Below are positions 414-64,000 of a stretch of DNA of 64,000 bases, in pieces (positions within the stretch are counted from its first letter, which is position 1; every line of letters starts with the position of its first letter). Both the position numbers and the translations under genes were made by a program. The notes beneath the pieces are model-generated. The model did not search any database. It saw only the letters and a list, made by a program, of their open reading frames with translations, and was not told where the DNA came from. The DNA comes from an uncultured Candidatus Saccharibacteria bacterium (lineage in GTDB: Bacteria; Patescibacteriota; Saccharimonadia; Saccharimonadales; UBA4665), in assembly GCA_964537115.1 (NCBI GenBank), contig CAZHYW010000003.1, forward strand, positions 26,087-90,086, in the 5' to 3' direction.

Positions 414-564
414 TACGCACTGCGTAAGCCGCATGCCTCTGGTTCAGCGCTAGATCGCCGCACAATCTCCATTGTTCTGAGTGCAAAACGGCGTTTTGTC
501 TCAAGCCAACACCGCTTTGATACGGCGGATGCCTGAGCTACTGGATTCTTCTTTGCGGCTTCGC

Positions 565-640
565 CTTATGAGACACCTGCAAGCAGGTTTCTCATCGCGC
601 GGGGCGGCGAAATGAATTCGCCGTCTCCGGCTGCTCTTCC
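565..640 (-). repeat. Modular intergenic repeat, short form (copy 1), 8 nt downstream of the alaS stop
   Basis: 593-638 is 46/46 identical to 30467-30512. It holds hairpin CGGCGAA-ATGAA-TTCGCCG and a second hairpin ATGAGA..ACCTGC/GCAGGT..TCTCAT at 568-595. Confidence 0.85.
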
Positions 641-645
641 CAACC

Positions 646-2625
646 CTACAACAGAGCGGCCTTAATTCTCCGAATGCCAGCGCTGGACGATTCCTCTTTG
701 GTAATCTTGAAGCGTTTGCCGTCTTCGGCCAGCCGCATGGTGTGGTCCACGTGCGGGCCACCACAAATCTCAAAGCTAAATGGCTTGGTCGCGCCGTCGG
801 CAATCATTTTGTACACCTTCACGGTGTCGCCGTAACGGTCGCCAAAGGCACCCAGGGCACCCATTTCTTCGCGGGCCACTTTGGTGGGGTACTCTTGAAA
901 ACTCACCTTGAGGTCTTTTTGAATCTGCTCGTTCACAATGTCTTCCACCCGCTTAATCTGCTCAGGCGTCAGCTTATCTGGATGGCTAAAGTCGAACCGC
1001 AACCGCTCCTCGGTGATGTTCGACCCATGCTGAACCACGTGGTCGCCCAACACCTCGCGCAGCGCCTGGTACATCAGGTGTGTAGCCGTGTGGTACTTTT
1101 TGTGCTGCAAAGTCTGGCCACCCAAACCACCCTTAAACGTACCCTTCGCCGCCGTCTGGCTCCGTGCCCGCTGCTCAGCCATTTTGGCATCGAACTGTGC
1201 TTGCCAATCGGCGCTTAGCTCAATGCCACGCCTGAAAGCCTCTTCCACGCTCAGTTCCACCGGGAACCCATAGGTGTCGTACAGCGTAAACAAGTCCTCA
1301 CCGTGAGTCGTCATCTTGAGCGGAGCGCTAGCGGAGTCGAAAGATCCCGCCATGTTCACTTCGGGCTGACGAGATTCCTCGGCTTCACTCGGAATGACAC
1401 TACTGCCAAAAAGTCTGTCAAACTCTTTCAAGCCCTTACGAAGTGTCTGACGGAAGACCTTTTCTTCCTTCACGAGTACTTCCACGACCTTGTCACGGTT
1501 AGCTTTCACTTCAGGATAGTCGGCTTCATACATGTCAGCAATCACGGGTACCACCTGCTCCACAAAGTTCTGCTCCACACCCAGGTCAAAGGCAAACCGA
1601 ATCGCCCGGCGCATCAGCCGGCGCATGACATACCCCTGCTCTTTGTTACTCGGCACCACACCGTCCACCGCCAAAAAGGCTGCGCTGCGCAGGTGGTCGG
1701 CAATCACGCGCATAGAGTTGGTGTTAGCGTCGTAGCGTTTACCAGAGATTTGCTCCAGCTTCTCCACGATAGGCCACATGATGCTAATTTTGAACAGATC
1801 GGGCGTGTCGATAGCCGCCATAGCGATCCGCTCCAGCCCACCTCCAAAGTCGATGTTATTCTTTGGCAGCGGCTCAAAACCTGCTTCCCGCCGTACGTAT
1901 TGCATGAGCACATTGTTACCAATTTCTACAAACTGGCCGCAATCGCAGTTAGGGTGACACTTTGGCCCGTAAGCCGTATCGTGTGGTACACCATCAAACT
2001 TATAAAACAACTCAGTCGAGGGCCCGCCCGGCTCGCCAACGGGCATGTCTTCAATCTTGCCGTTCCGGCACCACCAGTTTGGCTTGCCGGTGTAGAAAAA
2101 TATGCGCTCACCCGGCTGCATGCCGCGTTCTGTCGCCTGTTTTTCACTGCCCAGATCAGCGCGCTTGGTCTCTATGCCTTTACCGGCAAACAGCTTGGCC
2201 CAAATGTCAGCGCTCTCGTTGTCCTTGGGGATGTGCCTATCGTCGTCACCCATAAAACAAGTTATATACAACTTGCTGGGGTCGAGCCCCACCACATCAG
2301 TGTAAAACTCGAAAATCCACGGCAGCTGCTCGGCTTTAAAGTAGTCACCCAGGCTCCAGTTACCCAGCATCTCAAAGAACGTGTCGTGACGGTTGTCGCC
2401 GACCTCCTCGATGTCTTGCGCACGCAGACATGTTTGGCTATCCACCAGCCGCACACCGTCTTGGTGTGGCTCACCCAGCAGATACGGAATGAGCGGCTGC
2501 ATGCCACTGCCCGTAAACAACGTAGTGGGGTCGTTTTGCGGCACCAGCAGCGCCCGCGGGATGCGCTTGTGGCCCCGCTCTTCAAAAAACTTTAGGTAAG
2601 CATTACGAATGTCTTGTGCATTCAT
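646..2625 (-). CDS. alaS: Alanine--tRNA ligase, short form lacking the C-terminal C-Ala/DHHA1 domain
   Basis: Class II AlaRS N-terminus (MNAQDIRNAYLKFFEERGHKRIP) and editing-domain motifs, ending shortly after ICGGPHV...GIRRIKA. I chose the ATG at 2625 rather than the upstream TTG at 2700. Confidence 0.95.
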   Translation of the reverse strand: MNAQDIRNAYLKFFEERGHKRIPRALLVPQNDPTTLFTGSGMQPLIPYLLGEPHQDGVRLVDSQTCLRAQDIEEVGDNRHDTFFEMLGNWSLGDYFKAEQLPWIFEFYTDVVGLDPSKLYITCFMGDDDRHIPKDNESADIWAKLFAGKGIETKRADLGSEKQATERGMQPGERIFFYTGKPNWWCRNGKIEDMPVGEPGGPSTELFYKFDGVPHDTAYGPKCHPNCDCGQFVEIGNNVLMQYVRREAGFEPLPKNNIDFGGGLERIAMAAIDTPDLFKISIMWPIVEKLEQISGKRYDANTNSMRVIADHLRSAAFLAVDGVVPSNKEQGYVMRRLMRRAIRFAFDLGVEQNFVEQVVPVIADMYEADYPEVKANRDKVVEVLVKEEKVFRQTLRKGLKEFDRLFGSSVIPSEAEESRQPEVNMAGSFDSASAPLKMTTHGEDLFTLYDTYGFPVELSVEEAFRRGIELSADWQAQFDAKMAEQRARSQTAAKGTFKGGLGGQTLQHKKYHTATHLMYQALREVLGDHVVQHGSNITEERLRFDFSHPDKLTPEQIKRVEDIVNEQIQKDLKVSFQEYPTKVAREEMGALGAFGDRYGDTVKVYKMIADGATKPFSFEICGGPHVDHTMRLAEDGKRFKITKEESSSAGIRRIKAALL

Positions 2626-2655
2626 GGTTTGCTTCTTGCCCTTTCCGTTGGTACT

Positions 2656-2800
2656 AAAAAACTCGTTCGTACCAAACACTTTAAAATTAGTGTTTAGCAA
2701 GAACGAGGCTTTCTCGTGTTACCATCTTGCTTTCGTCGCCATATCGCTATGGCCGACCTCGGCGACTGGCTCTTCTACCAGTCTCTCCATTTTACGGTCG
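2656..2800 (-). promoter_or_regulatory. T-box-like riboswitch leader of alaS (antiterminator/terminator switch)
   Basis: RNA-sense AGCAAGA-[UGGUAAC bulge]-ACGAG-AAAGC-CUCGU-UCUUGCU (2731-2696) has canonical T-box antiterminator geometry. The competing helix CUCGUUC (2707-2701)/GAACGAG (2668-2662) is followed by U6 (2661-2656). The upstream helix pair CGACC/GGUCG and GACUGG/CCAGUC leaves GCC (2763-2761) in an internal loop. Confidence 0.65.
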
Positions 2801-6089: not shown

Positions 6090-7063
6090 ACCGTAGGCGT
6101 CACGCCGTTAACCACGAACTGGTCGGAACCGGTCGTTAGCACATTTATGACGCTCTGCACCGCCATGTCGCTCGTTGACTCCAGCATAGTACGGGTGTTG
6201 AAGCCAGCGTTAGTGTTGGTGGAGTACCAGCTGGCAAGCGGCAACTGCTCAAACCGTTTCTCATGCATCCCGCCGCCTACGTCATAAGCCGCACGGGCCT
6301 GTTGGTTCGCAATACGCTCGTACAACGCATCCAGGTCAAAACCGTCCCGGCCGCCCGTGTTTATGCAAAGTACACTGTTTTTAGTGACATTTAGCAGCTC
6401 CCGCGTGATGACGGTACCGGCTTGAGTGGAGGTATGGTTGGAGATAATATCGCAGGTTTTGCAGAGCTCTTCTAGACTCACATATGCAATACCGAGCTCG
6501 GTTTCCAGCTGTGGTTTACGGGTACGGTTCCAGTAGACTACCTCGCCCACACCGAGCCCCAGCAGTAGCCGCGTAACGCGCTCACCGATTCGCCCTATGC
6601 CCACTATGCCTACACGTACATCGGCCAAACTCGGTACGGTCATAAACTTGGCGTGGCCTAGGCCGCCCAGTTCAAAGATATGGCGCTGCATAATGAGGAT
6701 GAGCGTAAGCGTGAATTCGGCAACTGCAAAAGTGGTTGTACCCGGTGTATTGGTAATGGCAATGCCCCGCTGCGTAATAGCCGTATGGCCGGGTATAAAA
6801 TGCGCCCAGTCGGCGCCCGTAAAAGCGATGGCCTTCATAGCTGGGTCAAGGCTATTTGCCACGGTGGTAGTAACGGCTTCTTCGCCACCAATAATATACC
6901 CCGCTTTCCCTTTAAGAGCCGCTATGAGCTCGGCTTCCGAGGGATGGGCTTTGGTAAGTCGTTCCACCTTGAAGCCAGCCGCACGTAATGCAGCTTCGTG
7001 CTCGGGGAAAATAAATAGCGTATCGGTTACCAAGATCGTGCCCTTGGCTGTCTGTCTACTCAT
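6086..7063 (-). CDS. D-isomer-specific 2-hydroxyacid dehydrogenase family, NAD-binding
   Basis: Rossmann motif GIVGIGRIGERV and a family-typical layout. Confidence 0.85.
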   Translation of the reverse strand: MSRQTAKGTILVTDTLFIFPEHEAALRAAGFKVERLTKAHPSEAELIAALKGKAGYIIGGEEAVTTTVANSLDPAMKAIAFTGADWAHFIPGHTAITQRGIAITNTPGTTTFAVAEFTLTLILIMQRHIFELGGLGHAKFMTVPSLADVRVGIVGIGRIGERVTRLLLGLGVGEVVYWNRTRKPQLETELGIAYVSLEELCKTCDIISNHTSTQAGTVITRELLNVTKNSVLCINTGGRDGFDLDALYERIANQQARAAYDVGGGMHEKRFEQLPLASWYSTNTNAGFNTRTMLESTSDMAVQSVINVLTTGSDQFVVNGVTPTV

Positions 7064-12687: not shown

Positions 12688-13338
12688 TTAGGCTTTGTGG
12701 CCGTGCGATTTTCGCCATTTGGCGATTTCGGCGTGGTGGCCGGTGAGGAGCACCTCCGGCACACGCTGGCCGCGGAAATCTTCGGGGCGGGTGTATTGGG
12801 GGAACTCAACCGTTTCATCGTCGGTTTGGAACGATTCAATCTCCACGCTGGTCTCACCGCCGAGTACACCGGGAAGCAGCCGTACTACGCTATCTATGAT
12901 GACCATAGCCGGTAGCTCACCCCCGGTTAGCACGTAGTTACCGATGGAATACTGCTGGTCCACGTAAGCCGTAATCCGTTCGTCGTAGCCCTCATACCTC
13001 GGACAAATTAGGATGATCCCCCGGCCACTGGCCGCTGTGGCCTTCGCATGAGACTGCAGAAAGGTTTTACCCCTGGGGGTAGGCAGAATGACTGCTGCCG
13101 TTGGATCGTTGGCTTTAGCGGCTTCTACAGCGGCCGCTAAGGTGTCGACCCGGAGTAGCATGCCGTCGCCGCCGCCGTAAGGTGTATCATCGACCTGTTT
13201 GCGTGGGCCCAGCCCATAGTCGCGCAGATTTATAAAGCTATATTCTACAATACCGCGGTCGCTCGCCTTCCACAGCATGCTACTGCCCAGCACCCCGGTA
13301 AACATTTCCGGGAACAAAGTAATGACTTGGATTTTCAT
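12688..13338 (-). CDS. trmD: tRNA (guanine37-N1)-methyltransferase
   Basis: MKIQVITLFPEMF..., YEGYDERI and GGELPAM motifs. Confidence 0.93.
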   Translation of the reverse strand: MKIQVITLFPEMFTGVLGSSMLWKASDRGIVEYSFINLRDYGLGPRKQVDDTPYGGGDGMLLRVDTLAAAVEAAKANDPTAAVILPTPRGKTFLQSHAKATAASGRGIILICPRYEGYDERITAYVDQQYSIGNYVLTGGELPAMVIIDSVVRLLPGVLGGETSVEIESFQTDDETVEFPQYTRPEDFRGQRVPEVLLTGHHAEIAKWRKSHGHKA

Positions 13339-13412
13339 TACTAGCAATTATACGGCAAACACCGTCGAAACGGAGGCGAGCTATTACAGCACTATATTAC
13401 AACAGCACGGTA

Positions 13413-13441
13413 TTGACATAAGCGCCTTAGTCGTATATAAT
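13413..13441 (+). promoter_or_regulatory. Consensus sigma70-type promoter
   Basis: Exact TTGACA-17 nt-TATAAT, about 30 nt upstream of the LPXTG protein gene. Confidence 0.6.
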
Positions 13442-13473
13442 TAGCACAAGAATTACCGTAAGGAGGCATGGAG

Positions 13474-14061
13474 ATGCGTATTAGCAAACCCCTTATTTTA
13501 GCAACTGCTGGTGTTTTGGCCGGTATAACTGCTGGCGCCCTATCTTTGACGGCTCAGGCCGACAGCACCACGGCTTGTACAGTTATGTCGACTGGCAAAA
13601 AGAACACTGCCGGCAATGCTGACAGCCGCTTTGTACTAAACAACGACGGCACTGTGAGCGCAACTTTTACCGTAACAGGCACCGACTGCAATGAAGCCGT
13701 AACGATTGCTTCCTGGCAGGCCCCCGACAACATGAAAGGCCAGCCCTATAGCGAGCAAAAGCTATTCGCCCACACCACCGATACTTTCACCACTGGCACA
13801 CATACTATTAGCGTTGCCCTGCCCGGCTGTTTCTACCAAGTAGACCTTATTCGCGGCAGCAACACAACTGGCCCTGACGGCAGCGCCGTTTACACCAAAG
13901 GCAGCCTGATGGGCTCCCTGCATGGTGGAACCCAAACCTGCACACCGCCTACCCCTCCCGTGCTGCCCAAGACTGGTAGCGGACTGGGCATTTTCATAGC
14001 CAGCAGCGTGGCGGCAATGATTGGCTACGGCGTAAGCTTGTTTCGCAAAACCCGCGCATAG
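13474..14061 (+). CDS. Secreted LPXTG-anchored surface protein
   Basis: N-terminal signal peptide. C-terminal LPKTG plus a hydrophobic stretch plus RKTRA. SD AAGGAGG sits 7 nt before the ATG at 13474 (the ORF opens at 13468). Confidence 0.75.
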   Translation: MRISKPLILATAGVLAGITAGALSLTAQADSTTACTVMSTGKKNTAGNADSRFVLNNDGTVSATFTVTGTDCNEAVTIASWQAPDNMKGQPYSEQKLFAHTTDTFTTGTHTISVALPGCFYQVDLIRGSNTTGPDGSAVYTKGSLMGSLHGGTQTCTPPTPPVLPKTGSGLGIFIASSVAAMIGYGVSLFRKTRA

Positions 14062-14086
14062 CACTAGTACATTTGTAGCGCCACAC

Positions 14087-14118
14087 AAAAAGACCCCTAT
14101 ATAATTAGGGGTCTTTTT
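14087..14118. terminator. Bidirectional hairpin terminator
   Basis: AAAAAGACCCCTA-TATAAT-TAGGGGTCTTTTT. Confidence 0.7.
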
Positions 14119-14277
14119 GCCACATATAAAGCTCCCACGTTAGTTCTTGCGTGGCTCGCAGTTGAGCTTGTTTACGGTGTTTGTATTTGAAAGATCACTT
14201 CCAGAGGAAGCTTATAGAGTACTATAGCGTAAGCTGTTTAGTTTGGCAAGTACGAAGCTTAGAAGCCCGCCTGGAGA

Positions 14278-14724
14278 CTAGATGTCAAGGTCGTCCAAAT
14301 CGGCCAGCTCTTTGCGGGTACGGCTTACCGTGTCGCTCTCGCGCGTAGCCGTCTTAGTTTGTTCTTCGTCATCGTCGTCGCTGGTAGCGGGAGCAACGCT
14401 ATCGTCAGCGTCATCAGTAGTATCGTCTTGGCTGCTCAGGGCAGCAGCGCTTACGCCCCGCTCACTCTCCGGGCGGTCTACATCTACAATCTTAAGGTTA
14501 TAGCGAGCCTCATTTTTAGTGCCAAGGGCTCGCAGTAAGGTACGCAAACTCTGCGCCGTAGCGCCACGTTTGCCAATAACGCGGCCTAGATCTTCAGCGT
14601 CCACGGTAAGCTCTAGTAGTACACCCTTTTCGTCAATACGGCGTTCTATGCTTACGGCTTCGGGGTTATTGACAAGAGATTTAACGATAAATTCTACAAA
14701 CTGCTGATCAATGCTGGTAGCCAT
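14278..14724 (-). CDS. KH-domain RNA-binding protein (KhpA/YlqC-like) with a long acidic C-terminal tail
   Basis: GRVIGKRGATAQSLRTLL is a KH GXXG motif. The position after rpsP is conserved. Confidence 0.8.
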   Translation of the reverse strand: MATSIDQQFVEFIVKSLVNNPEAVSIERRIDEKGVLLELTVDAEDLGRVIGKRGATAQSLRTLLRALGTKNEARYNLKIVDVDRPESERGVSAAALSSQDDTTDDADDSVAPATSDDDDEEQTKTATRESDTVSRTRKELADLDDLDI

Positions 14725-14832
14725 AACAGTAGGTGCTCCTTTTTCAGGTTGCTAAGAGTGCATTATAGCAGAGAGCTATAAGCACTTTAGCCTGAAATAT
14801 TACATTTATTATAAACGGGTAGGCGCCTTGTC

Positions 14833-15261
14833 TTACGCTTCTTGTGCAGGTTCCTCTGCAGGGGCTATAGCCTCGGCCGCCTCTACCTCTGGCTCGCTCG
14901 CTGGGGTTTCAGCCTCAGCCGGAGCCGCTTCCACCGTTACCTCTTCCTTTGGACGGTTACGGCGGAGTTTCTCGGGCTTGCGAACAGTACCCGACTTCTT
15001 GTCGAGCGGCGCTACCCAAGCTGGTAGCTGCACACCTTCGCTTTTTAGAAGAGTAACAGCGCGCGGGCTAGGTTGCGCGCCATTAGTGAGGTAAAAACTA
15101 GCTTTTTCGTTATCCAGCGTAACAGCCTTGCTGTGCGGATCGTAAGTGCCCAGCTGAGCAACTATCTTACCGCTGGTGGGCGTACGACGACTGTCTTGAA
15201 CCACCACTCGGAACATGGCGTGACCCTTGCGGCCGGTACGTTGCAGACGAATAGCTAACAT
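14833..15261 (-). CDS. rpsP: 30S ribosomal protein S16 with a C-terminal Ala/Glu/Pro-rich extension
   Basis: MLAIRLQRTGRKGHAMFRVVV... is a canonical bS16 N-terminus. Confidence 0.93.
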   Translation of the reverse strand: MLAIRLQRTGRKGHAMFRVVVQDSRRTPTSGKIVAQLGTYDPHSKAVTLDNEKASFYLTNGAQPSPRAVTLLKSEGVQLPAWVAPLDKKSGTVRKPEKLRRNRPKEEVTVEAAPAEAETPASEPEVEAAEAIAPAEEPAQEA

Positions 15262-15390
15262 ATTGTCCTAAAACTCTCTTCTTGTCTTCTGCCCATAAAC
15301 GGCAGCATTTAATAATATGGTACTGATCTACATTTTACAGATACCGACCTCTATTGTCAAACCCTCCGCATATCATGACAGGCTTGCGTT

Positions 15391-15918
15391 ATGCACATAT
15401 GCATTGTATGGTATGAGCTGATGCAAGTCTACCGTTCGATTGAAAGCTTATTTACGACCGATACGCCAGACGTCTTGTGGCGAGACCCTAGACGCTACGC
15501 CGCGGTTGCCTTAGACGTCCACCCGGCAACACACCACCACCTTTTGGTCGTCATTCGTACCCCGGACGCTGCTCGCAGCCAGGTGCGAATGCCGTGGCAC
15601 CACTTGCCCGCAGCTATTCGCCAAGCCGGTCATCTCTTGGTCGATTTGGCGCAAGAACGCCTGTACGAAATGGTCGCCCCACCAGACGTAGTAACCACCG
15701 TTATGTCTGGGCGCAGTGTTATCGAGCCGCATGTACATCTCATGTCGGGCGGCGACCCCACCGAGCTGTGGAGGGCTGAACGCTACCACGACACCAACAA
15801 GCTAGAGCCAGACCTGTGCGGAGCACTGGCAGGTGAGATCGACTTTTGGGCAGTTGCCGAGCGCGCGGACACAATATTTGAAGGAGTGGACTTCTCGCCA
15901 CTTGGCCGGCCAGATTAG
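15391..15918 (+). CDS. Hypothetical protein, possibly HIT-like (degenerate histidine triad)
   Basis: The HPATHHHLLVV and EPHVHLM segments resemble a HIT fold. The start is uncertain (alternative ATG at 15421). Confidence 0.35.
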   Translation: MHICIVWYELMQVYRSIESLFTTDTPDVLWRDPRRYAAVALDVHPATHHHLLVVIRTPDAARSQVRMPWHHLPAAIRQAGHLLVDLAQERLYEMVAPPDVVTTVMSGRSVIEPHVHLMSGGDPTELWRAERYHDTNKLEPDLCGALAGEIDFWAVAERADTIFEGVDFSPLGRPD

Positions 15919-15935
15919 CTTGACTGCATGCAAGC

Positions 15936-16628
15936 TTACCGGTACTTCTGGAGCGCCGCAGTAGCGGCAGCGACTTGAGCCGCCTGCTTGCTGGGACCTG
16001 TACCTTGACCCTTTAGTTCACCGTCTACATATATGCCGACCGTAAAGGTTTTGTCGTGGTCGGGGCCTTCTTCGCTGAGCACTTTGTACTGCGGCGTACT
16101 GCCGCCCTGAGCCTGTACTACCTCTTGTAAATGACTTTTTGGGTCCATCCAGGAACCGCTTTTGAGTATGTCGTCGAAAGTGCTTAAAATGTTGGCCGTA
16201 ATAAACTGTTTGGCCGCTTCGTAGCCCTTGTCGAGGTACAGTGCGCCCACCACAGCCTCAAAGCTGTTGGCCAAAATCTGCGCCCGGGCACGTTCAGTAC
16301 CGCGCTTTTCGCCGCGGCTCAGGCGCAAAAGTGACTCAAAGCCCAGTCGGGACGCTGCCGCGCCAATCGATTCGGTGCGCACTAAGCTACTGCGCCAGTT
16401 GGTAAGTATGCCCTCCGGCTCCGTGTAGTTAGCGTACAAAAATTCGGTTACTACCAGCTCCAGCACGGCATCACCTAGGAATTCCAGGCGTTCATTGTGC
16501 TCGCTGACCGTACTGCGATGTTCGTTTAGGTAGCTACGGTGGGTTAGGGCCGTAATAAGCAGGTCCAGGTTGGCAAATGCCCCACCTAGTTTGTCTTTGG
16601 CAAGTTGTTGATAGGCTGTTGTGTCCAT
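15936..16628 (-). CDS. rnc: Ribonuclease III
   Basis: Signature ERLEFLGDAVLELVV plus a C-terminal dsRBD. Confidence 0.93.
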   Translation of the reverse strand: MDTTAYQQLAKDKLGGAFANLDLLITALTHRSYLNEHRSTVSEHNERLEFLGDAVLELVVTEFLYANYTEPEGILTNWRSSLVRTESIGAAASRLGFESLLRLSRGEKRGTERARAQILANSFEAVVGALYLDKGYEAAKQFITANILSTFDDILKSGSWMDPKSHLQEVVQAQGGSTPQYKVLSEEGPDHDKTFTVGIYVDGELKGQGTGPSKQAAQVAAATAALQKYR

Positions 16629-16657
16629 AATGTTCGTTTATGCCATTTACCGTTTTT

Positions 16658-16707
16658 CGTTTATCGTAAGAGCTTTTCCCCAAACGACAAACGATGCACG
16701 ATAAACG
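16658..16707 (-). promoter_or_regulatory. Inverted repeat in the rnc 5' leader
   Basis: CGTTTATCGT (16658-16667) pairs with ACGATAAACG (16698-16707). The 103-nt spacer holds about 9 CGTTT/AAACG pentamers. Confidence 0.25.
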
Positions 16708-16731
16708 TTTACTGTAACGTTTGAAGCCTCC

Positions 16732-17298
16732 TTATAGCTTCTGGTCCCTTATTTTCTTCATACCGGCCAGCATGAGCTTACCGATGTCTTCATAGGCAAT
16801 GCTGTCTACCGCGGTAGTTGCCGGTAGCCACTGAATGTCGCTCAGCCAATCTTCAGGGTGCAACCGCTCGGTATTCCCCAAAGCTTGGACCAGGTAAATG
16901 TGCATGGTCATGAGTACTAGCGTATGGTTGCGGCGGTAGCGGAAGTTTACCTTGCCTAACCAATCGCGTACTTGCATGCTTTGTAGGCCGGTCTCTTCGG
17001 TAATTTCGCGAGCGGCCGTGTCTTTGGGCTCTTCCCCTTCCTCGACATGCCCCTTTGGAATGGTCCAGCGGTTTTTAGCATCCTTTATGAGCAGAATCTC
17101 GAGCTCATTGTTTTTAGGGCTGCGACGAAAGACAATGCCACCAGATGTGGTTTCGTGCACCACTTCCTCTATGGCCGGCCGGCGGGTTACAAATTTGCGG
17201 ATACCCTCAATGGGCTTCCGAATGTTGCTCAAATGGTTTTTAGGGGTGCCCTCGTTCGGAACATTGCTTGGTCGTGGCCGGCGTTTCATAGCTGCCAT
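16732..17298 (-). CDS. NUDIX hydrolase
   Basis: Nudix box GHVEEGEEPKDTAAREITEETGL. Confidence 0.85.
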   Translation of the reverse strand: MAAMKRRPRPSNVPNEGTPKNHLSNIRKPIEGIRKFVTRRPAIEEVVHETTSGGIVFRRSPKNNELEILLIKDAKNRWTIPKGHVEEGEEPKDTAAREITEETGLQSMQVRDWLGKVNFRYRRNHTLVLMTMHIYLVQALGNTERLHPEDWLSDIQWLPATTAVDSIAYEDIGKLMLAGMKKIRDQKL

Positions 17299-17304
17299 AG
17301 CCCC

Positions 17305-17778
17305 TTACGCCGCTCCTGCACTTTCTGCACTGGCCGCTTCGGCGGATTCAGTGCCGTTCAGTTTTTTGAGCGCCGTGCCCAATACGCCGTTTACAAACTT
17401 GCTGGAGTTGTCGCCGCCAAAAGCTTTGGCCAGCTCTACCGCTTCGTTTATAACCACCTTTGGCGGAACGTCCTTGGTAAATTTAAGCTCATACAAGCCC
17501 ATACGCAGCACCACGCGGTCCATACGGGCAATTTGTTCTATGGGCCATTCGGGTGCCAGGGGCCGAAGCTCGTCATCGAGCTCTTTCTCGTGCTTGGCAA
17601 CGCCCTTGACCAACTCTTCTATAAAGAAAACGTCGTCAACAGTCGATTCGTAGCGCGCTATATTGCGCTTGAGCACGGTGCCGAGGTCAAACGAATCATC
17701 GCCGGCTTCGCGGCGAAAATCCTGCTCGTACAGCGTCTGCAGGGCGACTATACGACCGAGGTGGCGGTTGCTTGCCAT
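17305..17778 (-). CDS. nusB: Transcription antitermination factor NusB
   Basis: [13 protein letters not shown]... and the NusB fold pattern. Confidence 0.9.
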
Positions 17779-21070: not shown

Positions 21071-21502
21071 CTACCCCTTAAGCAGCGAGAATTTCTTGGT
21101 TAGCGCGTTTAGCTTGTCTATTTCGCCAAACATCACTACCGCCCAATATTCCAATTCGATCTCAGGAGTAGCGGCAGTACGTTCCTGCTGCTCGGCATAG
21201 GTTCCCACTGTCATAGTGCTCGTAAAATCGGTGAAATATACACTCTGCTCCACCAAATTGTTCCGCAGTGTGCGCAGCTGGTTGCTGTTATCTGCCTGCA
21301 AGATTATAAATGGATTATCAGAGATGTTGGCATGTGCATTGCCATCTTTGTCGGTGTAGTCATCTAAACGCATTTCTGCCGGCACGGGGTAGGACCCAGC
21401 CAGTCCCGCTGTGGCATGCGCCAGGGCGTTCATAACTTGCCCGGCCGGAATCTTCTTGTTTAATACAGCTACGAATTTGTGCGTAACAGGGATGTAGGCC
21501 AT
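21071..21502 (-). CDS. DUF2000-like protein (PTH2-fold superfamily)
   Basis: 143 aa. The pattern KFVAVLNKKIPAGQVMNALAHATAGL...YWAVVMFGE resembles DUF2000. Its start overlaps the AlaX stop as TAATG. Confidence 0.6.
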   Translation of the reverse strand: MAYIPVTHKFVAVLNKKIPAGQVMNALAHATAGLAGSYPVPAEMRLDDYTDKDGNAHANISDNPFIILQADNSNQLRTLRNNLVEQSVYFTDFTSTMTVGTYAEQQERTAATPEIELEYWAVVMFGEIDKLNALTKKFSLLKG

Positions 21503-22239
21503 TAGTTAATTCCCTCCACTCGGTAGCTTACTTTGGTAACACCCTTCTTAGATTTTACTTTTGCAATCTCCACCTTGCCGATCTCTGTTACCGCCTGGAC
21601 GTGCGTACCGCCACACGGGACGCCAAAGTTATCGGCGTAGAGGACTATGCGCGACGGCTTGTTGGTGGGCAGATTGGCAGGAACATGGCGGCAGTACTTG
21701 CCCATTTCGCCAGCCGGCATAAACATAACCTGATTTTGGTAGTCACTAGTACTTAGTTCGTCTACCTTGGCCTGGATGGCCTGCTGTGTGGCATCGTCGG
21801 CCTCAAAATCGCCCGTGTCATACTCCACAAACGCCATGTGTGGGTAGTGTGCACCCTTGCCCGGCACCCACGGTAAGCCAAGAGCATCTACCGCCATGTC
21901 TACAAGATGGCCTGCCGAGTGCAAACGCGTGTTGGCTTGTCGGCGGTCTTCGTCCACAGCGCAGTGCACGTCTTGACCTATCGTAAACGCACCGTTAGTG
22001 AATGTCCCATAATGCTGCACCACTCCGTTCTCATCCAACCGCACCGTGGCTACGGTAAACTGTGCATCGTCAGAACTAATGGCGCCCGTGTCCCAGTCCT
22101 GGCCGCCGCCACGCGGGTAAAAACAGGTTTGGTCTAGTTCCACCACCATTTGGTCGTCTTCGGCCGCGTACACATTCACCACCTGAGCATCGGCTGTGGT
22201 AATGCCGAACCCCTCCAAATATAGTAATTTCGTTGCCAT
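21502..22239 (-). CDS. alaX: AlaX-M-type free-standing alanyl-tRNA editing protein
   Basis: Zn/editing motifs HSAGHLV (HxxxH) and CGGTHV (CxxxH). 245 aa. Confidence 0.85.
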   Translation of the reverse strand: MATKLLYLEGFGITTADAQVVNVYAAEDDQMVVELDQTCFYPRGGGQDWDTGAISSDDAQFTVATVRLDENGVVQHYGTFTNGAFTIGQDVHCAVDEDRRQANTRLHSAGHLVDMAVDALGLPWVPGKGAHYPHMAFVEYDTGDFEADDATQQAIQAKVDELSTSDYQNQVMFMPAGEMGKYCRHVPANLPTNKPSRIVLYADNFGVPCGGTHVQAVTEIGKVEIAKVKSKKGVTKVSYRVEGIN

Positions 22240-24748: not shown

Positions 24749-24841
24749 CCCCCTGGAAATTGCTGTACTCATCTGTTATACTCGTCCTGTTCGCATTTAA
24801 TTTGGGGCTCCCAGCCGCAAAGCGACTTGAAGCCCTGGGAA

Positions 24842-24973
24842 AAGAGCAGCCGGACAAAATCTATTCGATTTTGCCCGCGCGATGATAGATGAACCGAAGG
24901 TAAATCTATATGCAGAGCCGGAGTATTTGTCTGTGCGAAGCTATATAAAAACCGTAGGTTTGTCTCATTACCC
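24842..24973 (+). repeat. Modular intergenic repeat, long form (copy A), directly upstream of tRNA-Ala
   Basis: AAGAGCAGCCGGA-[CAAAATC-TATTC-GATTTTG]-CCCGCGCGATG, followed by a 67-nt module that is near-identical to 31545-31611. Confidence 0.85.
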
Positions 24974-24978
24974 GACGC

Positions 24979-25055
24979 GGGGACGTAGCTCAGTTGATTA
25001 GAGCGCCTGCATGGCATGCAGGAGGTCGTGGGTTTGAATCCCGTCGTCTCCACCA
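24979..25055 (+). tRNA. tRNA-Ala(GGC), CCA encoded
   Basis: Cloverleaf folded by hand. Acceptor GGGGACG/CGTCTCC has G3:U70, the anticodon loop is AUGGCAU, the T-loop is TTTGAAT and the discriminator is A. Confidence 0.92.
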
Positions 25056-25095
25056 AAGAAAATACCGGTCACACTATGCGACCGGTATTTTCTTT
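25056..25095. terminator. Strong bidirectional terminator
   Basis: Perfect 16-bp stem AAAGAAAATACCGGTC/GACCGGTATTTTCTTT with a 9-nt loop and A/T runs on both sides. Confidence 0.85.
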
Positions 25096-25120
25096 GGTGT
25101 TTGGATAAAAGATCAGTGGG

Positions 25121-26189: not shown

Positions 26190-26759
26190 TTACATAAATA
26201 GGCGCTGGTTGGGCCAAATAAGCCGTTCCACCTGTGTATAAAACGTTTGAGAACCTAGGCGCGCTAAGTTGTCGTGGTAAAAGCGGTAAATGACTTCGGC
26301 GTCATCGTACGCTCGGTGGCGGCGGTCTACCCGGTAGCCAGCTCGACGAATGACGTCATCCAGTTTGTGGCCATGCTCGTGTGGGTATAAGGCTCGGCTG
26401 AGCCGTACGGTGCATAGTTTGTCCATGGCAAATGTATGGCCTGCCCGACGGTATTCTGCCGCAAAGAAACTGTAGTCGAAGCCTACGTTATGGGCCACAA
26501 AAATCGCATCTTTAAACATCTCGCCTAAGCGTGGCAGCAGTTCCACAAAGACCGGCTGACTGGTAGTCTCTGGCTGCTGTATGCCGGTTAGGTTGGTAAT
26601 CCACCCCGGCACTGGCTCTTCGGGGTCTAGCACTTGATCCAGGCTAGCTACAATTTGGCCATCTTCTACTCGAAGCGCCCCAATTTCGAGTATACGGCTG
26701 TTCCAAGCCATACCCCCGGTGGTCTCTACATCGACAAATACTAGCGGCCTCCCCTGCAT
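26190..26759 (-). CDS. DnaQ/epsilon-like 3'-5' exonuclease
   Basis: Exo motifs FVDVETTG, HNVGFDYSF and HRAYDDAE. Confidence 0.85.
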   Translation of the reverse strand: MQGRPLVFVDVETTGGMAWNSRILEIGALRVEDGQIVASLDQVLDPEEPVPGWITNLTGIQQPETTSQPVFVELLPRLGEMFKDAIFVAHNVGFDYSFFAAEYRRAGHTFAMDKLCTVRLSRALYPHEHGHKLDDVIRRAGYRVDRRHRAYDDAEVIYRFYHDNLARLGSQTFYTQVERLIWPNQRLFM

Positions 26760-30056: not shown

Positions 30057-30430
30057 TGGTGGAGCTGCCGGGTACTGCCCCCGGGTCCGTCGGCGTTTTC
30101 GCTAGTCGTCTACAGGCTTAGTCTGTTTTAAAAGTCTTAGCGCATGGGTATCGAAACATACAAACAGTCCATGCGAGCAATCCTGGTCTTAGCGGTCGGA
30201 TTGAATAGGTCCGTCCGAGCAATCAGAAATATAGAACGCTTATTCGCTATCTGATGTCGCAAAGGCGTTTCCGTGGCAACTAGGCTACGGAGAATGCGAG
30301 CTGAGGTGCCTTAAAGACACTAGCTACGCGGTTCCAAACTTTTGCAGTTATTGGATTTTGCCTATATCGCTGACAAGCGACCTGCTGATCTAGCGGTAAC
30401 GTACCAACGTCGAGCTTAAAATTCAGCCCC
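30057..30430 (-). ncRNA. ssrA: tmRNA (SsrA), 374 nt
   Basis: 5' GGGGCUGAAUUUUAAGCUCGACG... and 3' ...GGACCCGGGGGCAGUACCCGGCAGCUCCACCA. The acceptor carries G3:U70. Candidate tag frame: AKVWNRVASVFKAPQLAFSVA* (30345-30280). Confidence 0.85.
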
Positions 30431-30514
30431 TTGTCGTCGGTAATGGGACAAACCTACGGTTTTTCCCATCGCGCGGGGCGGCGAAATGAATTCGCCGTCT
30501 CCGGCTGCTCTTTT
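30431..30514 (-). repeat. Modular intergenic repeat, short form (copy 2), forming the tmRNA 5' leader
   Basis: 30467-30512 is identical to 593-638. Hairpin ATGGGA..AAACC-GTA-GGTTT..TCCCAT lies at 30443-30469. Confidence 0.85.
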
Positions 30515-30604
30515 CCCTTCGCCCGCGGCAAACCGCAAACCATTTGAAAATTAGAGCTACCTGGTACAGATGTGCATAAGGGTACAATACCCCTACAATC
30601 GCCT

Positions 30605-30634
30605 ATTATAGCATAACTACAAGCACTTTGTCTA
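30605..30634 (-). promoter_or_regulatory. Candidate ssrA promoter overlapping the ksgA stop codon
   Basis: TAGACA-18 nt-(TGC)TATAAT on the minus strand, with an extended -10. It implies a leader of about 165 nt. Confidence 0.5.
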
Positions 30635-31432
30635 GCTCTTGCCGGCAGCCCGATACAAAGCGTACCAGTCATCAAGTGAGAGGGCTTGGGCGCGGGTGGA
30701 TTCGGGTATGTTGGCGGTGGTGAGCAAAGTGCGGGCTTCATCCTTGGGGATGGCCAGGCCACCGCTGAGCGAATTGACGAGCGTTTTGCGTTTTTGGCTA
30801 AAGCCGGCCTTTACCAGGCGGAAGAACTGTTTGGTGTCGACACCCTCGAACAGCGGCTTGGCGCGGTACGTAAGAACCAGCACCTGGCTGTCGACTTTGG
30901 GCGGTGGTGTAAACAATTTGGCCGGTACCTCTAGGCCCAGTGACACCTCGCAGTAATACTGCGCGCTCACACTCAAAATGGACATGTCACCGGGGCGGGC
31001 CGCCACCCGCTGTGCCACTTCTTTCTGGATGAGGATGGCGGCTTGGCTAAACGGGTTGGAGCTTTCACAGAGTACGCGGATGAGGTTGCTCGTGAGGTAA
31101 TACGGGATGTTCGCCACCACTTTGTAACCGGTTGGCAATGCGGTAAGGTCGAACTGCAAGATGTCTTGCTGCACCACTGTTAGGTTGCCGCCTAAAGGAC
31201 TGTCCTTTAGGCTCAAGTTTGATAAGTCTTCGGCAAGACGTACATCGAACTCTACGGCCGTTACATGAGCACCGCGAGCTAGCAGTTGGCGTGTGAGTGT
31301 GCCTAGGCCTGGACCAATTTCGAGTACGTTGTCGCTAGCGCCAACTGCGACGCTGTCGCAAATAGCCTGCAGCGTCTTTTCATCGTGCAGCCAATGCTGC
31401 CCTAAGGCCTTCTTCGGAACAATATCACTCAT
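30632..31432 (-). CDS. rsmA: 16S rRNA (adenine1518/1519-N6)-dimethyltransferase
   Basis: KKALGQHWL..., SAM motif LEIGPGLGTLT and NIPYY. Confidence 0.93.
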   Translation of the reverse strand: MSDIVPKKALGQHWLHDEKTLQAICDSVAVGASDNVLEIGPGLGTLTRQLLARGAHVTAVEFDVRLAEDLSNLSLKDSPLGGNLTVVQQDILQFDLTALPTGYKVVANIPYYLTSNLIRVLCESSNPFSQAAILIQKEVAQRVAARPGDMSILSVSAQYYCEVSLGLEVPAKLFTPPPKVDSQVLVLTYRAKPLFEGVDTKQFFRLVKAGFSQKRKTLVNSLSGGLAIPKDEARTLLTTANIPESTRAQALSLDDWYALYRAAGKS

Positions 31433-31478
31433 TCCCCTGATACTACCAAGTCCGGCGCTACTTTACTACTGGCCTGGA

Positions 31479-31611
31479 AAGAGCAGCCCGAGTCGGCGGA
31501 TTCATTCCGTTGGCCCCGCGCGTTAGCTCGAGCGAAGCGAGAGATATATGCAGAGCCGGAGTATTTGTCCGCGCGAAGCTATATGAGAGAACCTAGGTTC
31601 TCTCATTACCC
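31479..31611 (+). repeat. Modular intergenic repeat, long form (copy B), antisense to the flanking genes
   Basis: AAGAGCAGCCCGA-[CGGCGGA-TTCAT-TCCGTTG, paired via G-U]-GCCCCGCGCG..., then a module matching 24907-24973. It includes the perfect hairpin ATGAGAGAACC-TA-GGTTCTCTCAT (31583-31606). Confidence 0.85.
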
Positions 31612-32895
31612 CTACCAGTTATGGTGTACCGTCCAGTAATTGTAGGCGCCCGCCCAGCTACCGTAGCGTGCATTTGCATAGCCCGTAGCCCAACGAATTT
31701 GTGTTACGGCGCTGGTCGCCCAGTCGCTACCTGCCGATGCCATTTTACTGCCTGGCGTTGCTTGGAAGATGCCGTAGCCACCGTGTGCCGGGACATCGCT
31801 CGGGCTCATATACCCTGGGCAGGCATGAGTCCCCTGGATCTTAGTGGGGCACCAGCCGCCTTCGTGGCTGGCAATGTAGTCAACGTACTTGTAATCACTC
31901 TCGGCGATACCGGCCTGACGCATTACCGCCTGTTTGTCGGCTGGTATGCTCACCGCCTGACCCCGTGCGACCACTTCCGCCACCGGCTGCACCGTAACCA
32001 CTGTTTGCAGCAAGGTACGGCTTGTCTCGACACCGTTTACCGTGTTCACTTGGTACGTCAGTACCTGTGCGCCGGCACTACCCTGCTGGCGGACGGCCGT
32101 GGTACCAAAGGTAAGCGACGTATCGAGCACGGCCTGGATGGGCGCGGGGATGGTTTGTGTGACGGTTTCTATGCGCGTACCTTTGCGGCTCACGAATACT
32201 TGCAGGCCTGGGGTAATGGGCGTGCTCAGTGCCGGCGTAACAGTATCGGCCGCAGTCAGTTTAATACGCTCGCTGCCCAGCAGGTCTTTGACAGTTGTAG
32301 CGTGGGTACGCAGGGACAGCAGTGTGCCGTAATCGTTCAAATTTACCGGTACCGACCGTTCGATGTTTATGTGCTCACCGACCGACTGCTCGGAGGCTAG
32401 GTTCTCGGCTGGCGCGGCCGTTACAAAGTCTTCGGCATACAGCGCTATACCCGCGTCGGTTACCATACTGCGCGGCGTGGCAGCCGCACTGTAGGCGGTG
32501 GTTGTAGTGGTGCCATCACTAATAGTAACTGGCACTGCTCGGTAAACGTTTACACGAAAATTGTCCTGCACAATAGCTGTAGTTAGGCTGGGTTCTACGC
32601 GGTCACGTACGCCGATGTGAATGTTTAGCTTGTGGAGCAGCGCGCCAACTGTGGGCTCATTGGTAGGCACCGTTTGAACGGCATGGTCATGCGAAATAAT
32701 AACAATATAGCTGGTATCGGGCCGAAAAGTAGCCGTATGGTGGGTCGCAAACAGCAAGTAAAGCAAGCCACCGCTTACCGCTAGCAGGCCCAGAAATGCG
32801 GCAATCGGCAAACCGAGGGGGTGCCGACGTAGGCGATGAAACCGCCGAACGTGCGCTTTGGCAGAGGGCTGTATTTTGCTATGGATTTTTTGCAT
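31612..32895 (-). CDS. RpfB/YabE-like cell-wall protein (N-terminal TM, DUF348 repeats, G5 domain, C-terminal transglycosylase-like domain)
   Basis: The domain order was recognised by eye. The C-terminus reads SHEGGW...GGYGIFQ. The position upstream of ksgA mirrors rpfB-ksgA and yabE-ksgA synteny. Confidence 0.7.
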   Translation of the reverse strand: MQKIHSKIQPSAKAHVRRFHRLRRHPLGLPIAAFLGLLAVSGGLLYLLFATHHTATFRPDTSYIVIISHDHAVQTVPTNEPTVGALLHKLNIHIGVRDRVEPSLTTAIVQDNFRVNVYRAVPVTISDGTTTTTAYSAAATPRSMVTDAGIALYAEDFVTAAPAENLASEQSVGEHINIERSVPVNLNDYGTLLSLRTHATTVKDLLGSERIKLTAADTVTPALSTPITPGLQVFVSRKGTRIETVTQTIPAPIQAVLDTSLTFGTTAVRQQGSAGAQVLTYQVNTVNGVETSRTLLQTVVTVQPVAEVVARGQAVSIPADKQAVMRQAGIAESDYKYVDYIASHEGGWCPTKIQGTHACPGYMSPSDVPAHGGYGIFQATPGSKMASAGSDWATSAVTQIRWATGYANARYGSWAGAYNYWTVHHNW

Positions 32896-63060: not shown

Positions 63061-63852
63061 CTATAGTTGGCTCAATGAAAGCGACCCATCAGAGTCCGTC
63101 AAATCCTGCCACGTATCAAGCTTATCTTGAGTTGTGATGAAAGCCCGCAGCCCATCATCCGCATCCTCGAGAATTCGAGATGCTTTCTTCACTAAGCGCT
63201 TCTGCAAACTGGCATTGTCACAAACAAGTAATACCTTTGGAAAATCACTCTCGGTTCCAGCCTCCCACTCGCCGCTATCCGCGTAGTCCACGTACTGCTT
63301 TAATCTGCGCACAACCGTAAAGAATGGCTTACTGTTCTGTAGATACTCCAGAAAGAAGTCCTTTTCGCTGCCATCGATGTCGAGATGCATATAAACGCTC
63401 GGCACAAAATCCTCGAAGTAGTCGTATTTGGCTAACTGGCTCTTGGTGAGGAACTTTAGGCTGTCTCCGTATTGGGCCTTGAGCTTGCAATATAAACCGA
63501 ACATGTCTAGGCAGTATTGGATAAACTCCTCGGAGGTGGTCTTATCCTTGTAGATCGCTTTGATGTTCACCGCTTTATCCGGGCGGCTTTCTTGCAATAC
63601 ACGAGCACCGGCAGGTAGCAAATAATAAGCTGCTGGTTTGCCCTGTATACGATAGCTACTATCAAAGCGTTTGCCGATAAGCCCTTGGTCTTGCAGTATC
63701 GAAAGTCGTTTAAAGACGAACGACCGATCCTTCTTACCAAAATACTGCGCGATCAAATCATTACTACCAAACCTAAACTTATATAACAGCTCCAAGACTT
63801 CTAGCTGTTCCGTGTTTAATTTTTTTCTATGCTTCTGTTCTGACTTATCCAT
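63061..63852 (-). CDS. Replication-relaxation-family-like protein
   Basis: N-terminal wHTH pattern LNTEQLEVLELLYKFRFGSNDLIAQYF...RLSILQDQGLIGKR...YYLLPAGARVL, typical of plasmid/ICE Replic_Relax proteins. Confidence 0.5.
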   Translation of the reverse strand: MDKSEQKHRKKLNTEQLEVLELLYKFRFGSNDLIAQYFGKKDRSFVFKRLSILQDQGLIGKRFDSSYRIQGKPAAYYLLPAGARVLQESRPDKAVNIKAIYKDKTTSEEFIQYCLDMFGLYCKLKAQYGDSLKFLTKSQLAKYDYFEDFVPSVYMHLDIDGSEKDFFLEYLQNSKPFFTVVRRLKQYVDYADSGEWEAGTESDFPKVLLVCDNASLQKRLVKKASRILEDADDGLRAFITTQDKLDTWQDLTDSDGSLSLSQL

Positions 63853-64000
63853 ATCTATTCATTCACATATAAACTTTTTCAATCTTCTAAAAATTAAACA
63901 CTACACAATTATGAGTCTTATCTTCTATATATTTATATATTAGTAAGGGAGAAATATAAAGAGAGAGTAAGAGAGGTAGGAGGAGAGTAGAAAGTTCAAC

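Follow-up and report, generated by a model that had tools for sequence, protein, structure and literature searches.

A structured and conserved, apparently undescribed repeat family of Saccharibacteria with copies just ahead of tRNA, tmRNA and 5S rRNA genes

Why does one short intergenic module, built of hairpins that change in sequence while keeping their pairing, recur in a Saccharibacteria genome, and does it act as RNA or as DNA? The question is raised by a stretch of 64,000 nucleotides (nt), here called the window, from an uncultured Candidatus Saccharibacteria bacterium (GenBank assembly GCA_964537115.1, contig CAZHYW010000003.1, positions 26,087 to 90,086, forward strand). A preliminary description had reported four copies of such a module, located at the end of alaS, upstream of tRNA-Ala, upstream of the transfer-messenger RNA (tmRNA) and in the gap between an rpfB-like gene and ksgA, and these contexts agree with the coordinates of the open reading frames (ORFs), tRNA and tmRNA. 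The window was searched with the pattern AAGAGCAGCCSGA-N10-35-CCCGCGCG, with 100 dinucleotide shuffles as a control. Exactly four matches were obtained, at the places where copies had been described (596-638(-), 24842-24881(+), 30470-30512(-) and 31479-31522(+), named copies A to D in this order), and 0 of the 100 shuffled sequences contained a match. The window was also scanned end to end with a covariance model (R1), its filters switched off; the four copies scored between 33.8 and 78.8 bits (Table 1), and no fifth copy was found. The next-best matches (14.7 and 13.7 bits, at 35521-35579 and 15041-15114) lie inside the pcrA and rpsP ORFs and were discarded.

The finer details of that description could also be followed in the sequence. 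The reported identity of copies A and C at 46 of 46 core positions holds, and over 588-638 and 30462-30512 they agree at 50 of 51 positions. In the first hairpin the stem is CGGCGAA/TTCGCCG, CAAAATC/GATTTTG or CGGCGGA/TCCGTTG, the third of these containing two G·U pairs, and the second hairpin has the variants ATGAGA/TCTCAT, ATGGGA/TCCCAT and ATGAGAGAACC/GGTTCTCTCAT. An internal module is common to the two long copies; it spans 61 nt (24886-24946 and 31524-31584) and is 82% identical between them.

Architecture, covariation and distribution of the element

Alignment and consensus folding gave a fixed order of parts over a total length of 70-145 nt. A purine tail, GG(G)-An-GAGCA, is followed by an imperfect hairpin (P1), one G and a second hairpin (P2). 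The base of P1 consists of GCCGG paired with CCG-C-GC, leaving out a bulged C, and an A·C mismatch present in 127 of 130 copies separates it from a variable top (P1b). P2 starts as AUGAGA/UCUCAU, continues with an internal A·G mismatch or a G-C pair and ends in a variable upper stem. The flanks of the first hairpin had been described as conserved, and they are; however, they are not unpaired, since consensus folding pairs them with each other as the P1 base. In roughly one fifth of the copies, for example copy A (565-557), a mini-hairpin (G)GCGAAGC(C) follows P2. Long forms carry additional hairpins at the mismatch position of the P2 5' arm. They include copies B and D of the window and the copies of L011, L039, L091, L142, L147 and L241, where L-numbers (L005, L170 and so on) label the collected loci or contigs that carry the element. 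The P1 tops are swappable, and the view of a true modular repeat family is borne out.

Retention of structure over sequence by compensatory changes, proposed from the window copies, was confirmed on alignments of 42, 58 and 81 sequences. In the 42-sequence alignment 92% of the cells were paired, compared with 37-54% in slid controls, and 145 cells were changed on both sides, compared with 49 in column shuffles; none of 500 shuffles reached the observed value. A separately collected and model-aligned set of 81 distinct metagenome sequences gave 96% paired cells (slid controls, 31-58%), with double changes at 18 of 22 pairs; 347 cells were doubly changed, where shuffles gave 94 and in 500 trials never reached the observed value. 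Among 130 copies, the pair at the S position of the P1 base was G-C in 118, C-G in 8 and A-T in 1; two of the three mismatches belong to copy D of the window and to L017. A peptide starting at the ATG of P2 was considered and rejected. The first two bases of this hairpin covary with the last two (TC/GA, CT/AG, TT/AA), and the constraint is therefore structural, not coding. A resemblance of GAUGAG to the hammerhead was likewise rejected, as neither the GAAA nor a third stem is present.

A second regularity links the tail to P2. When the A-run of the tail (length n) was compared with the purine run of the P2 5' arm (length m), m equaled n+1 in 101 of 116 short copies, with the (n,m) classes (2,3), (3,4), (4,5) and (5,6) represented 33, 9, 42 and 17 times. 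Permutation of the n/m pairs in 10,000 trials gave a mean of 33 and a maximum of 51 agreeing copies. At least seven different P2 arm types follow the rule, several of the exceptions conform when the U-run of the 3' arm is counted instead, and the P1b types mix freely with the n classes. The tail GACGAGAAAAGG and the P2 arm GAUGAGAAAAACC, both read in the direction away from P1, mirror each other. In a rare n=1 subfamily (L185, L210, L143, L221 and L211) the mirror holds base for base, with the tail GGGGAGAG against the arm GAGAGGGG. We know of no DNA rearrangement that generates a mirror repeat.

The distribution of the element was determined in two scans. In the first, the window pattern was applied to one genome per species, and at least 120 loci matched. 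Among the matches listed, at least about 50 loci with the full element came from assembled genomes of Candidatus Saccharibacteria/Saccharimonadales; the others were judged to be chance matches, lying inside ORFs of GC-rich genomes and lacking the hairpins. The second scan, with a slightly different pattern, yielded at least about 90 further true copies in metagenome contigs. The pooled scans comprise at least 130 distinct copies at no fewer than 119 loci on more than 100 Saccharibacteria genome or metagenome contigs, at a density of roughly one copy per 16-64 kb. A phage origin was rejected, as the single viral-contig match lacked hairpins and was attributed to chance. Three contigs with a typical element (L039, L073 and L079) are labeled Limnocylindrales, Pristimantibacillus and Nomurabacteria, probably through binning or labeling errors. 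If these labels are wrong, the element may be a marker for Saccharibacteria contigs, and its compactness would suit it to that use.

The absence of a known family, presumed earlier, was upheld: an Rfam 15 cmscan of the window at the gathering threshold returned only the tRNA and the tmRNA, and permissive scans (E<=10) of copies B and C returned only a 15-bit chance match to a snoRNA. A literature search for the element sequence, a Saccharibacteria repeat or a leader motif found no description of it; the one useful paper was a survey of rRNA insertions (PMC11270868), considered below. We conclude that the element represents a genuine repeat family of Saccharibacteria, structured and conserved, that has apparently not been described before. 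The family is ancient and spread across this group, and its strong covariation makes it a candidate for a new Rfam family. In Saccharibacteria, as in other bacteria of the Candidate Phyla Radiation, genomes are tiny and spare DNA is scarce, yet dozens of copies of one structured module are kept.

Position relative to genes and within structured RNAs

Positions were assessed by calling tRNA and tmRNA genes around 118 short copies. The 5' end of a tRNA or tmRNA on the same strand lay 3-15 nt past P2 in 23 of them, with a mode of 6-7 nt, and in none did it lie 16-400 nt past P2; only one copy faced a tRNA on the opposite strand. All seven 23S-5S spacers that were collected carry a sense element just ahead of the 5S gene. 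The positional preference that the preliminary description had left as a question therefore exists and is sharp, placing the element 3-15 nt ahead of the 5' ends of tRNA, tmRNA and 5S rRNA. Other sense copies end shortly before a ribosome-binding site, for example upstream of an ORF in L086 with a GroEL-like N-terminus.

In the window, the P2 of copy B ends 10 nt ahead of tRNA-Ala and that of copy C 12 nt ahead of the tmRNA 5' end. Sigma-70-like promoters were found upstream of both (Table 1), so that copy B lies within the pre-tRNA-Ala leader and copy C within the pre-tmRNA leader. An extended -10 motif was present within 110 nt upstream of 10 of 22 tRNA-leader copies, compared with 16 of 90 others. 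Because canonical promoters stand upstream of the element, these copies are leader sequence and not promoters. A promoter reading was rejected also on other grounds: the conserved blocks are rich in G and C and lie at distances that differ by more than 8 nt, unlike the -35 and -10 hexamers of a sigma-70-type promoter with their fixed spacing of 16-18 bp, and no motif occurs at a fixed upstream distance. Resemblances to sigma-54 sites and boxA were confined to single copies or to the antisense strand. A replication-strand bias was rejected, as copies C and D, 1 kb apart, are oppositely oriented.

The element does not resemble an intrinsic terminator either. The sense strand has no U-tract, and in the terminator scan only the antisense strand of copy B passed. 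Copies of class n=3 with a perfect GAGAGAACC arm are always antisense and abut a stop codon. About 12 nt (10-15 nt) beyond their tails, a separate canonical terminator of A-tract, hairpin and T-tract was found (L047, L082, L091, L117, L051, L034 and L031), which argues that the element itself is not the terminator. The loop of this terminator, GGATTCATTCC, equals a common P1b top, as though a cap sequence were reused. The near-consensus tmRNA promoter and the canonical terminators indicate that the organism uses ordinary promoter and terminator signals.

Some copies reside inside other structured RNAs (Table 1). Two sense copies occupy helix tips of the L170 23S rRNA, a weaker sense copy occupies the second of these sites in L181, and a third site in L232 is discussed below. 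Both L170 sites are empty, with short tips, in L232, and site 1 is empty in L181. The first L170 copy is closed by a 10-bp helix extension with G·U pairs. An extended stem-loop at a 23S helix tip, with relatives that lack it, is the hallmark of an intervening sequence (IVS) and was seen for these 23S copies only, not for the window copies. In the part of the rRNA-insertion survey that describes them, 64 of 66 Saccharibacteria insertions are short, without an intron or an ORF/endonuclease gene, and located at known IVS sites; its authors presume RNase III-type IVSs, and that account does not tie the insertions to a genome-wide repeat (PMC11270868). The copies found here inside 23S genes connect such short insertions with the genome-wide element.

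In three cobalamin riboswitches the whole element, in sense orientation, takes the place of the variable P6 region of the aptamer, between ACUGUAA and the B12 box. Only the L119 aptamer reaches the Rfam gathering score; the insert is probably what keeps the others below it. The same riboswitch-flanking sequences were recognized, by eye only, in L005 near 6231-6400. A c-di-GMP-II riboswitch (L198:8978-9060, 63.8 bits) was found on a metagenome contig that also carries an element copy.

Comparison between species gave both retained and altered sites. A copy at the alaS 3' end is present in the window and in L050, where the alanyl-tRNA synthetases (AlaRS) are 65-78% identical; the L050 copy differs from that of the window in P1b, P2 top and n class. 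The copy in the tRNA-Ala leader is common to the window, L068 and L073, and in L068 the element-tRNA unit is inverted en bloc between conserved neighbors. Tail-to-tail inverted pairs of elements were seen at L012:3152-3346 and L016:1645-1817. Inverted tail remnants (CTCTTT...AAAGAG) that could pair with the tail were seen in L008 upstream of 2230 and in the upstream flanks of L021, L005 and L163, and L008 also contains tandem degenerate tail/P1 modules.

RNA signal or DNA repeat

Because of the sharp tRNA spacing, the presence in seven of seven 5S spacers and the sense copies in riboswitches and 23S rRNA, we favor an RNA-level processing or insulating cassette, a tentative reading that we place a little below an even chance. 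The alaS and tRNA-Ala sites retained between species, the promoters upstream of leader copies and the G·U pairs of P2, which are more numerous on the sense strand, also speak for it. The sequences show directly that the copies form a family, how they fold and covary, where they lie and that promoter motifs stand upstream; transcription, protein recognition, cleavage and insulation are inferred. The element would be co-transcribed with its neighbors and act in the RNA as a self-folding cassette. Its main sense role would be in the 5' leaders of tRNA, tmRNA, 5S rRNA and some mRNAs, where only a few bases would separate its end from the mature 5' end or the ribosome-binding site. P1 with the tail may form the docking or cleavage site of a conserved host RNA-binding protein or double-strand RNase. 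The cassette would separate and insulate the downstream RNA from the upstream transcript, as an IVS is excised from 23S rRNA, typically by RNase III and leaving the rRNA fragmented, and P2 would stay as a structural buffer beside the RNase P site or the ribosome-binding site. Copies would lodge wherever an extra hairpin is tolerated, and gene conversion or occasional transposition could keep them alike within a genome. The window contains an RNase III ORF (15936-16628), and NusB is also encoded. If the element is an RNA signal of this kind, it would give the lineage its own way to punctuate and mature stable RNAs, via a dedicated binding protein or RNase, and would explain the short rRNA insertions reported for Saccharibacteria.

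Several observations weigh against the RNA cassette. Co-directional gene pairs, identified with a home-made gene caller, held 22 copies in sense and 18 in antisense orientation. In about 18 copies, copy D included, the P2 end lies 0-9 nt from the stop codon of an opposite-strand ORF, antisense copies directly behind a stop codon make up about a third of the copies, and the strong 23S copy at the third site, in L232, is antisense; these antisense copies imply that a strictly strand-specific RNA signal cannot explain all members. When 58 copies were folded over their whole length, 51 did better as antisense RNA, since a G·U takes the place of the invariant A·C mismatch on that strand. G·U pairs are rare in the 81-sequence set (about 1% of cells). 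The mini-hairpin of GCGAAGC is unusually stable in DNA but not in RNA; like a purine mirror repeat, it belongs more typically to stable folds of DNA, which also favors purine-motif triplexes. RNase III has no need of a conserved sequence as long as that of the element. Finally, identical P1b tops within one genome (window copies A and C, L053/L086, L034/L091, L008/L081), a copy between pcrA and the rpfB-like gene in L011 with none at the site of window copy D, and the L170 23S sites that are empty in L232 also fit a mobile DNA repeat. These comparisons of sites and tops indicate concerted evolution with occasional gain and loss.

The folding tests disagree on the strand. Single-strand folds of the four window copies were more stable than shuffles on both strands (z of -1.9 to -4.3). 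Variable G·U pairs within P2 number 14 on the sense and 4 on the antisense strand, and at the G54 position of the 81-sequence set G·U occurs five times, on the sense strand. Assignment by folding energy was dropped as contradictory, the whole element pointing to antisense and the P2 G·U pairs to sense.

The main rival, somewhat less likely than the cassette, is a selfish or domesticated DNA repeat. It would resemble repetitive extragenic palindromic (REP) sequences with their REP-associated tyrosine transposase (RAYT), the ends of IS200/IS605 or a miniature inverted-repeat transposable element, and its functional form would be single-stranded DNA, with the imperfect hairpin and the conserved 5' flank recognized by a vertically inherited, hairpin-specific enzyme. 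Its RNA-level positions would be those where insertions are tolerated, and leaders would favor the sense orientation since the antisense strand looks terminator-like, as the score of antisense copy B suggests. The occurrence in both orientations, the near-identical P1 tops within a genome, the sites filled in some relatives and empty in others, the inverted pairs in L012 and L016 and the inverted remnants upstream of some copies would all be expected of such a repeat, as would modules nested inside P2 and an imperfect hairpin with an invariant bulge, an invariant mismatch and a conserved 5' flank. The same few P1 top types recur across species and shuffle against the tail and P2 classes. Besides the rarity of wobble pairs, GCGAAGC is enriched in the elements, with 4 occurrences in about 430 nt of element sequence, always sense, against 11 in the other 63.5 kb of the window. 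However, the same sequence is found phylum-wide, whereas REP sequences are usually genus-specific. Orthologous sites are retained over deep divergence, the density is low, all seven 23S-5S spacers carry an element, and the 3-15 nt spacing to tRNA 5' ends is very sharp. No transposase or HUH domain was found among the approximately 50 window ORFs scanned, and tblastn gave no IS200/IS605 TnpA-like match in 1.2 Mb of collected DNA, a weak negative, as the IS608 TnpA query sequence was approximate. As a DNA repeat, the element would stand out among mobile elements for its age and for being so well behaved.

The relation of tail to P2 bears on the fold of the element on either strand. Its simplest physical reading would have the tail run along P2, as a triplex or as a groove-bound strand. 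Because the tail mirrors the purine arm of P2 and their lengths covary, an intramolecular triple helix of purine tail and hairpin P2 was considered; we regard it as improbable. Within the GAG part of P2, the few changes from A to G have no counterpart in the tail, and in some copies the tail GGGAA is paired with an upstream UUCCC instead. If the triple helix does form, the element would be a compact terminal cap, and RNase P cutting 3-15 nt downstream would leave a nuclease-resistant leader RNA with this fold at its end; this would be a bacterial counterpart of the MALAT1 arrangement, in which a triple helix stands beside a tRNA-like structure. Alternatively, the non-template strand of highly transcribed genes could, as single-stranded DNA, adopt a purine-motif triplex, which would then be a new kind of non-B-DNA genomic signal. 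The element offers a test case for a possible natural triple helix.

Two further readings are less likely. A transcription-elongation device, in which the sense hairpins would act on RNA polymerase like phage HK022 put RNA and bring about processive antitermination of untranslated, heavily transcribed stable-RNA genes while antisense P1 followed by UGCUCUUUU would serve as a weak terminator after ORFs, is suggested by analogy and seems quite unlikely. It would suit leaders in which a promoter is followed by two hairpins a single nucleotide apart, the enrichment ahead of tRNA, tmRNA, 5S rRNA and a GroEL-like ORF, the boxA-like GCTCTTT and the one terminator-like score of the antisense strand, and the antisense copies that hug stop codons. 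However, the genome has NusB and canonical terminators, the n=3 copies are accompanied by a separate canonical terminator about 12 nt away, antisense copy D lies 46 nt before ksgA with little room for a new promoter, and the role is at odds with the copies found within 23S rRNA and a riboswitch aptamer.

Very unlikely is a small ribozyme or mini-intron that would cut itself out of its host RNAs and so do no harm inside 23S rRNA, riboswitches and leaders. Conserved unpaired or irregular nucleotides among covarying helices (the tail, the A·C mismatch, the bulged C and the linker G) and sense copies within essential RNAs speak for it; no Rfam ribozyme or intron model matched even at E<=10, no known self-cleaving RNA has a core as simple as one irregular hairpin plus tail, 23S rRNA tolerates a copy in antisense orientation, and no conserved cleavage-site context is evident. 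An alanine-specific regulatory element, suggested in the preliminary description by three of four window copies adjoining alaS, tRNA-Ala or tmRNA and consistent with the alaS and tRNA-Ala positions kept in other species, is hardly credible, and the link is coincidental: the same element precedes at least 13 other tRNA species (Pro, Asn, Lys, Val, Met, Ser, Asp, Phe, Gly, Arg and Leu among them), 5S rRNA and a GroEL-like ORF, and copies lie inside 23S rRNA and the B12 riboswitch and at many unrelated 3' ends.

Window copies, their neighbors and known systems

The coordinates of the copies, of their parts and of adjoining features are collected in Table 1. Copy A is in sense orientation to alaS, 7 nt past the AlaRS stop, and its P1 top is identical to that of copy C. 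The P2 5' arm of copy B is split by the nested insert 24886-24946, which comprises a second, topless P1-like module and one GCGAAGC. Copy D has an uncompensated C·C at the S position of P1 and two G·U pairs in the top, and its nested insert holds two GCGAAGC; it is antisense to both flanking genes, with the P2 end 5 nt from the stop codon of the RpfB-like ORF.

Table 1. Coordinates of the element copies and of adjoining or host features (window positions unless a locus label is given)
Feature	Position	Strand or orientation	Remarks
Copy A	557-641	(-)	short form, tail class n=2, 75.0 bits
Copy A, parts	tail 641-632; P1 with variable top 631-597; linker G 596; P2 595-568		tail GGGAAGAGCA
Copy A, irregular bases	626/603; 599		A·C mismatch; bulged C
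Copy A, P3	565-557		optional mini-hairpin GGCGAAGCC
AlaRS ORF	646-2700	(-)	ends 7 nt short of the AAGAG core of copy A
Promoter upstream of copy B	24754-24782	(+)	sigma-70-like, extended -10, TGGAAA-17-TATACT, TG present
Copy B	24837-24968	(+)	long form, n=4, 45.9 bits
Copy B, parts	tail 24837-24848; P1 24849-24880; linker G 24881; P2 24882-24968		P1 top CAAAATC/GATTTTG
tRNA-Ala(GGC)	24979-25055	(+)	directly downstream of copy B
tmRNA	30057-30430	(-)	downstream of copy C; followed by canonical intrinsic terminator, 30053-30027
Copy C	30443-30517	(-)	short form, n=4, 78.8 bits
Copy C, parts	tail 30517-30506; P1 30505-30471; linker G 30470; P2 30469-30443		tail GGGAAAAGAGCA
Promoter about 85 nt upstream of copy C	30605-30634	(-)	near-consensus sigma-70, extended -10, TAGACA-18-TGcTATAAT, 11/12 matches
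KsgA/RrnaAD ORF	30632-31432	(-)	flanks copy D
Copy D	31476-31606	(+)	long form, n=3, 33.8 bits
Copy D, parts	tail 31476-31485; P1 31486-31521; linker G 31522; insert 31523-31582; P2 31583-31606		tail GGAAAGAGCA
RpfB-like ORF (G5/DUF348)	31612-32895	(-)	flanks copy D
L170 23S rRNA copies	L170:446-527; L170:1195-1275	sense	66.9 and 61.2 bits; helix tips
L181 23S rRNA copy	L181:3646-3715	sense	weaker; second site
L232 23S rRNA copy	L232:4570-4651	antisense	strong, 55.5 bits; third site
Cobalamin riboswitch inserts	L119:2309-2512; L025:7177-7387; L021:1987-2126	sense	aptamer scores 31.7, 28.6 and 26.7 bits

Other features of the window were recorded alongside. The AlaRS ORF is short (684 aa, catalytic core and SAD domain). 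A separate 245-aa ORF at 21502-22239(-) matches only the C-terminal end of the AlaRS catalytic-domain profile and adjoins a DUF2000 ORF at 21071-21502. The tRNA-Ala is followed by a 23-nt perfect-arm hairpin with flanking A and T runs (25051-25099) that resembles a bidirectional terminator. A cluster at 12688-17778 encodes functions of RNA metabolism, namely TrmD, a KhpA/B KH-domain protein, ribosomal protein S16, RNase III, a NUDIX protein and NusB, and an RNase T-like exonuclease ORF lies at 26190-26759. At the window edge, a Replic_Relax-domain ORF (63061-63852(-)) beside a 31-nt inverted repeat (63794-63919) may be a mobile-element remnant.

Two known systems are alike in architecture only. 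HK022 put RNA is a leader with two hairpins joined by one base. The MALAT1 triple helix, of the element for nuclear expression (ENE) type, has a mirror-type homopurine/homopyrimidine relation and an RNase P site a few bases downstream, but in the Saccharibacteria element a classical U·A-U triplex would have to be formed by the antisense strand, while the tRNA-linked copies are sense. The ends of IS200/IS605 transposons and of the short non-autonomous elements derived from them have subterminal imperfect hairpins and guide bases 5' of the hairpin foot, with a TnpA gene in the genome. The hairpin of the element, with its bulge, its mismatch and the conserved flank on its 5' side, resembles this design; in a minority of copies P2 is followed by TTAC.

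Pneumococcal BOX and Neisseria Correia elements, compared here by description, share modules that can be duplicated or nested, intergenic location, co-transcription and stable folds, and they may affect transcript processing or stability. They differ in being genus-limited, in the terminal inverted repeats or target duplications (Correia), and in having no fixed relation to tRNA 5' ends.

REP sequences of enterobacteria and pseudomonads and the bacterial interspersed mosaic elements (BIMEs) built from them, with a cognate Y1/HUH transposase (RAYT) gene that the repeats typically flank, are closer. They too are extragenic imperfect palindromes with a conserved flank, found in either orientation and often just past stop codons, with inverted doublets, homogeneity within a genome and a likely secondary effect on RNA stability; extragenic location, both orientations and homogenization within a genome were all found for the element. 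In contrast, a REP is a single palindrome of 20-40 nt behind a GTAG-like tetranucleotide, whereas the element has two or three hairpins over 70-145 nt and a consensus of tail GG-An-GAGCA, P1 and P2 without a GTAG-type head. Its phylum-wide sequence, precise distance to stable-RNA genes and low density also set it apart, and no RAYT was found in the collected sequence.

The IVSs in the 23S rRNA of Salmonella, Leptospira, Campylobacter and other bacteria are matched by some copies, which are sporadic stem-loop insertions at helix tips in genomes of a group in which RNase III is encoded, as in the window. Unlike these IVSs, most copies of the element lie outside rRNA, in tRNA, tmRNA and 5S leaders, untranslated regions and a riboswitch, and they share a conserved core.

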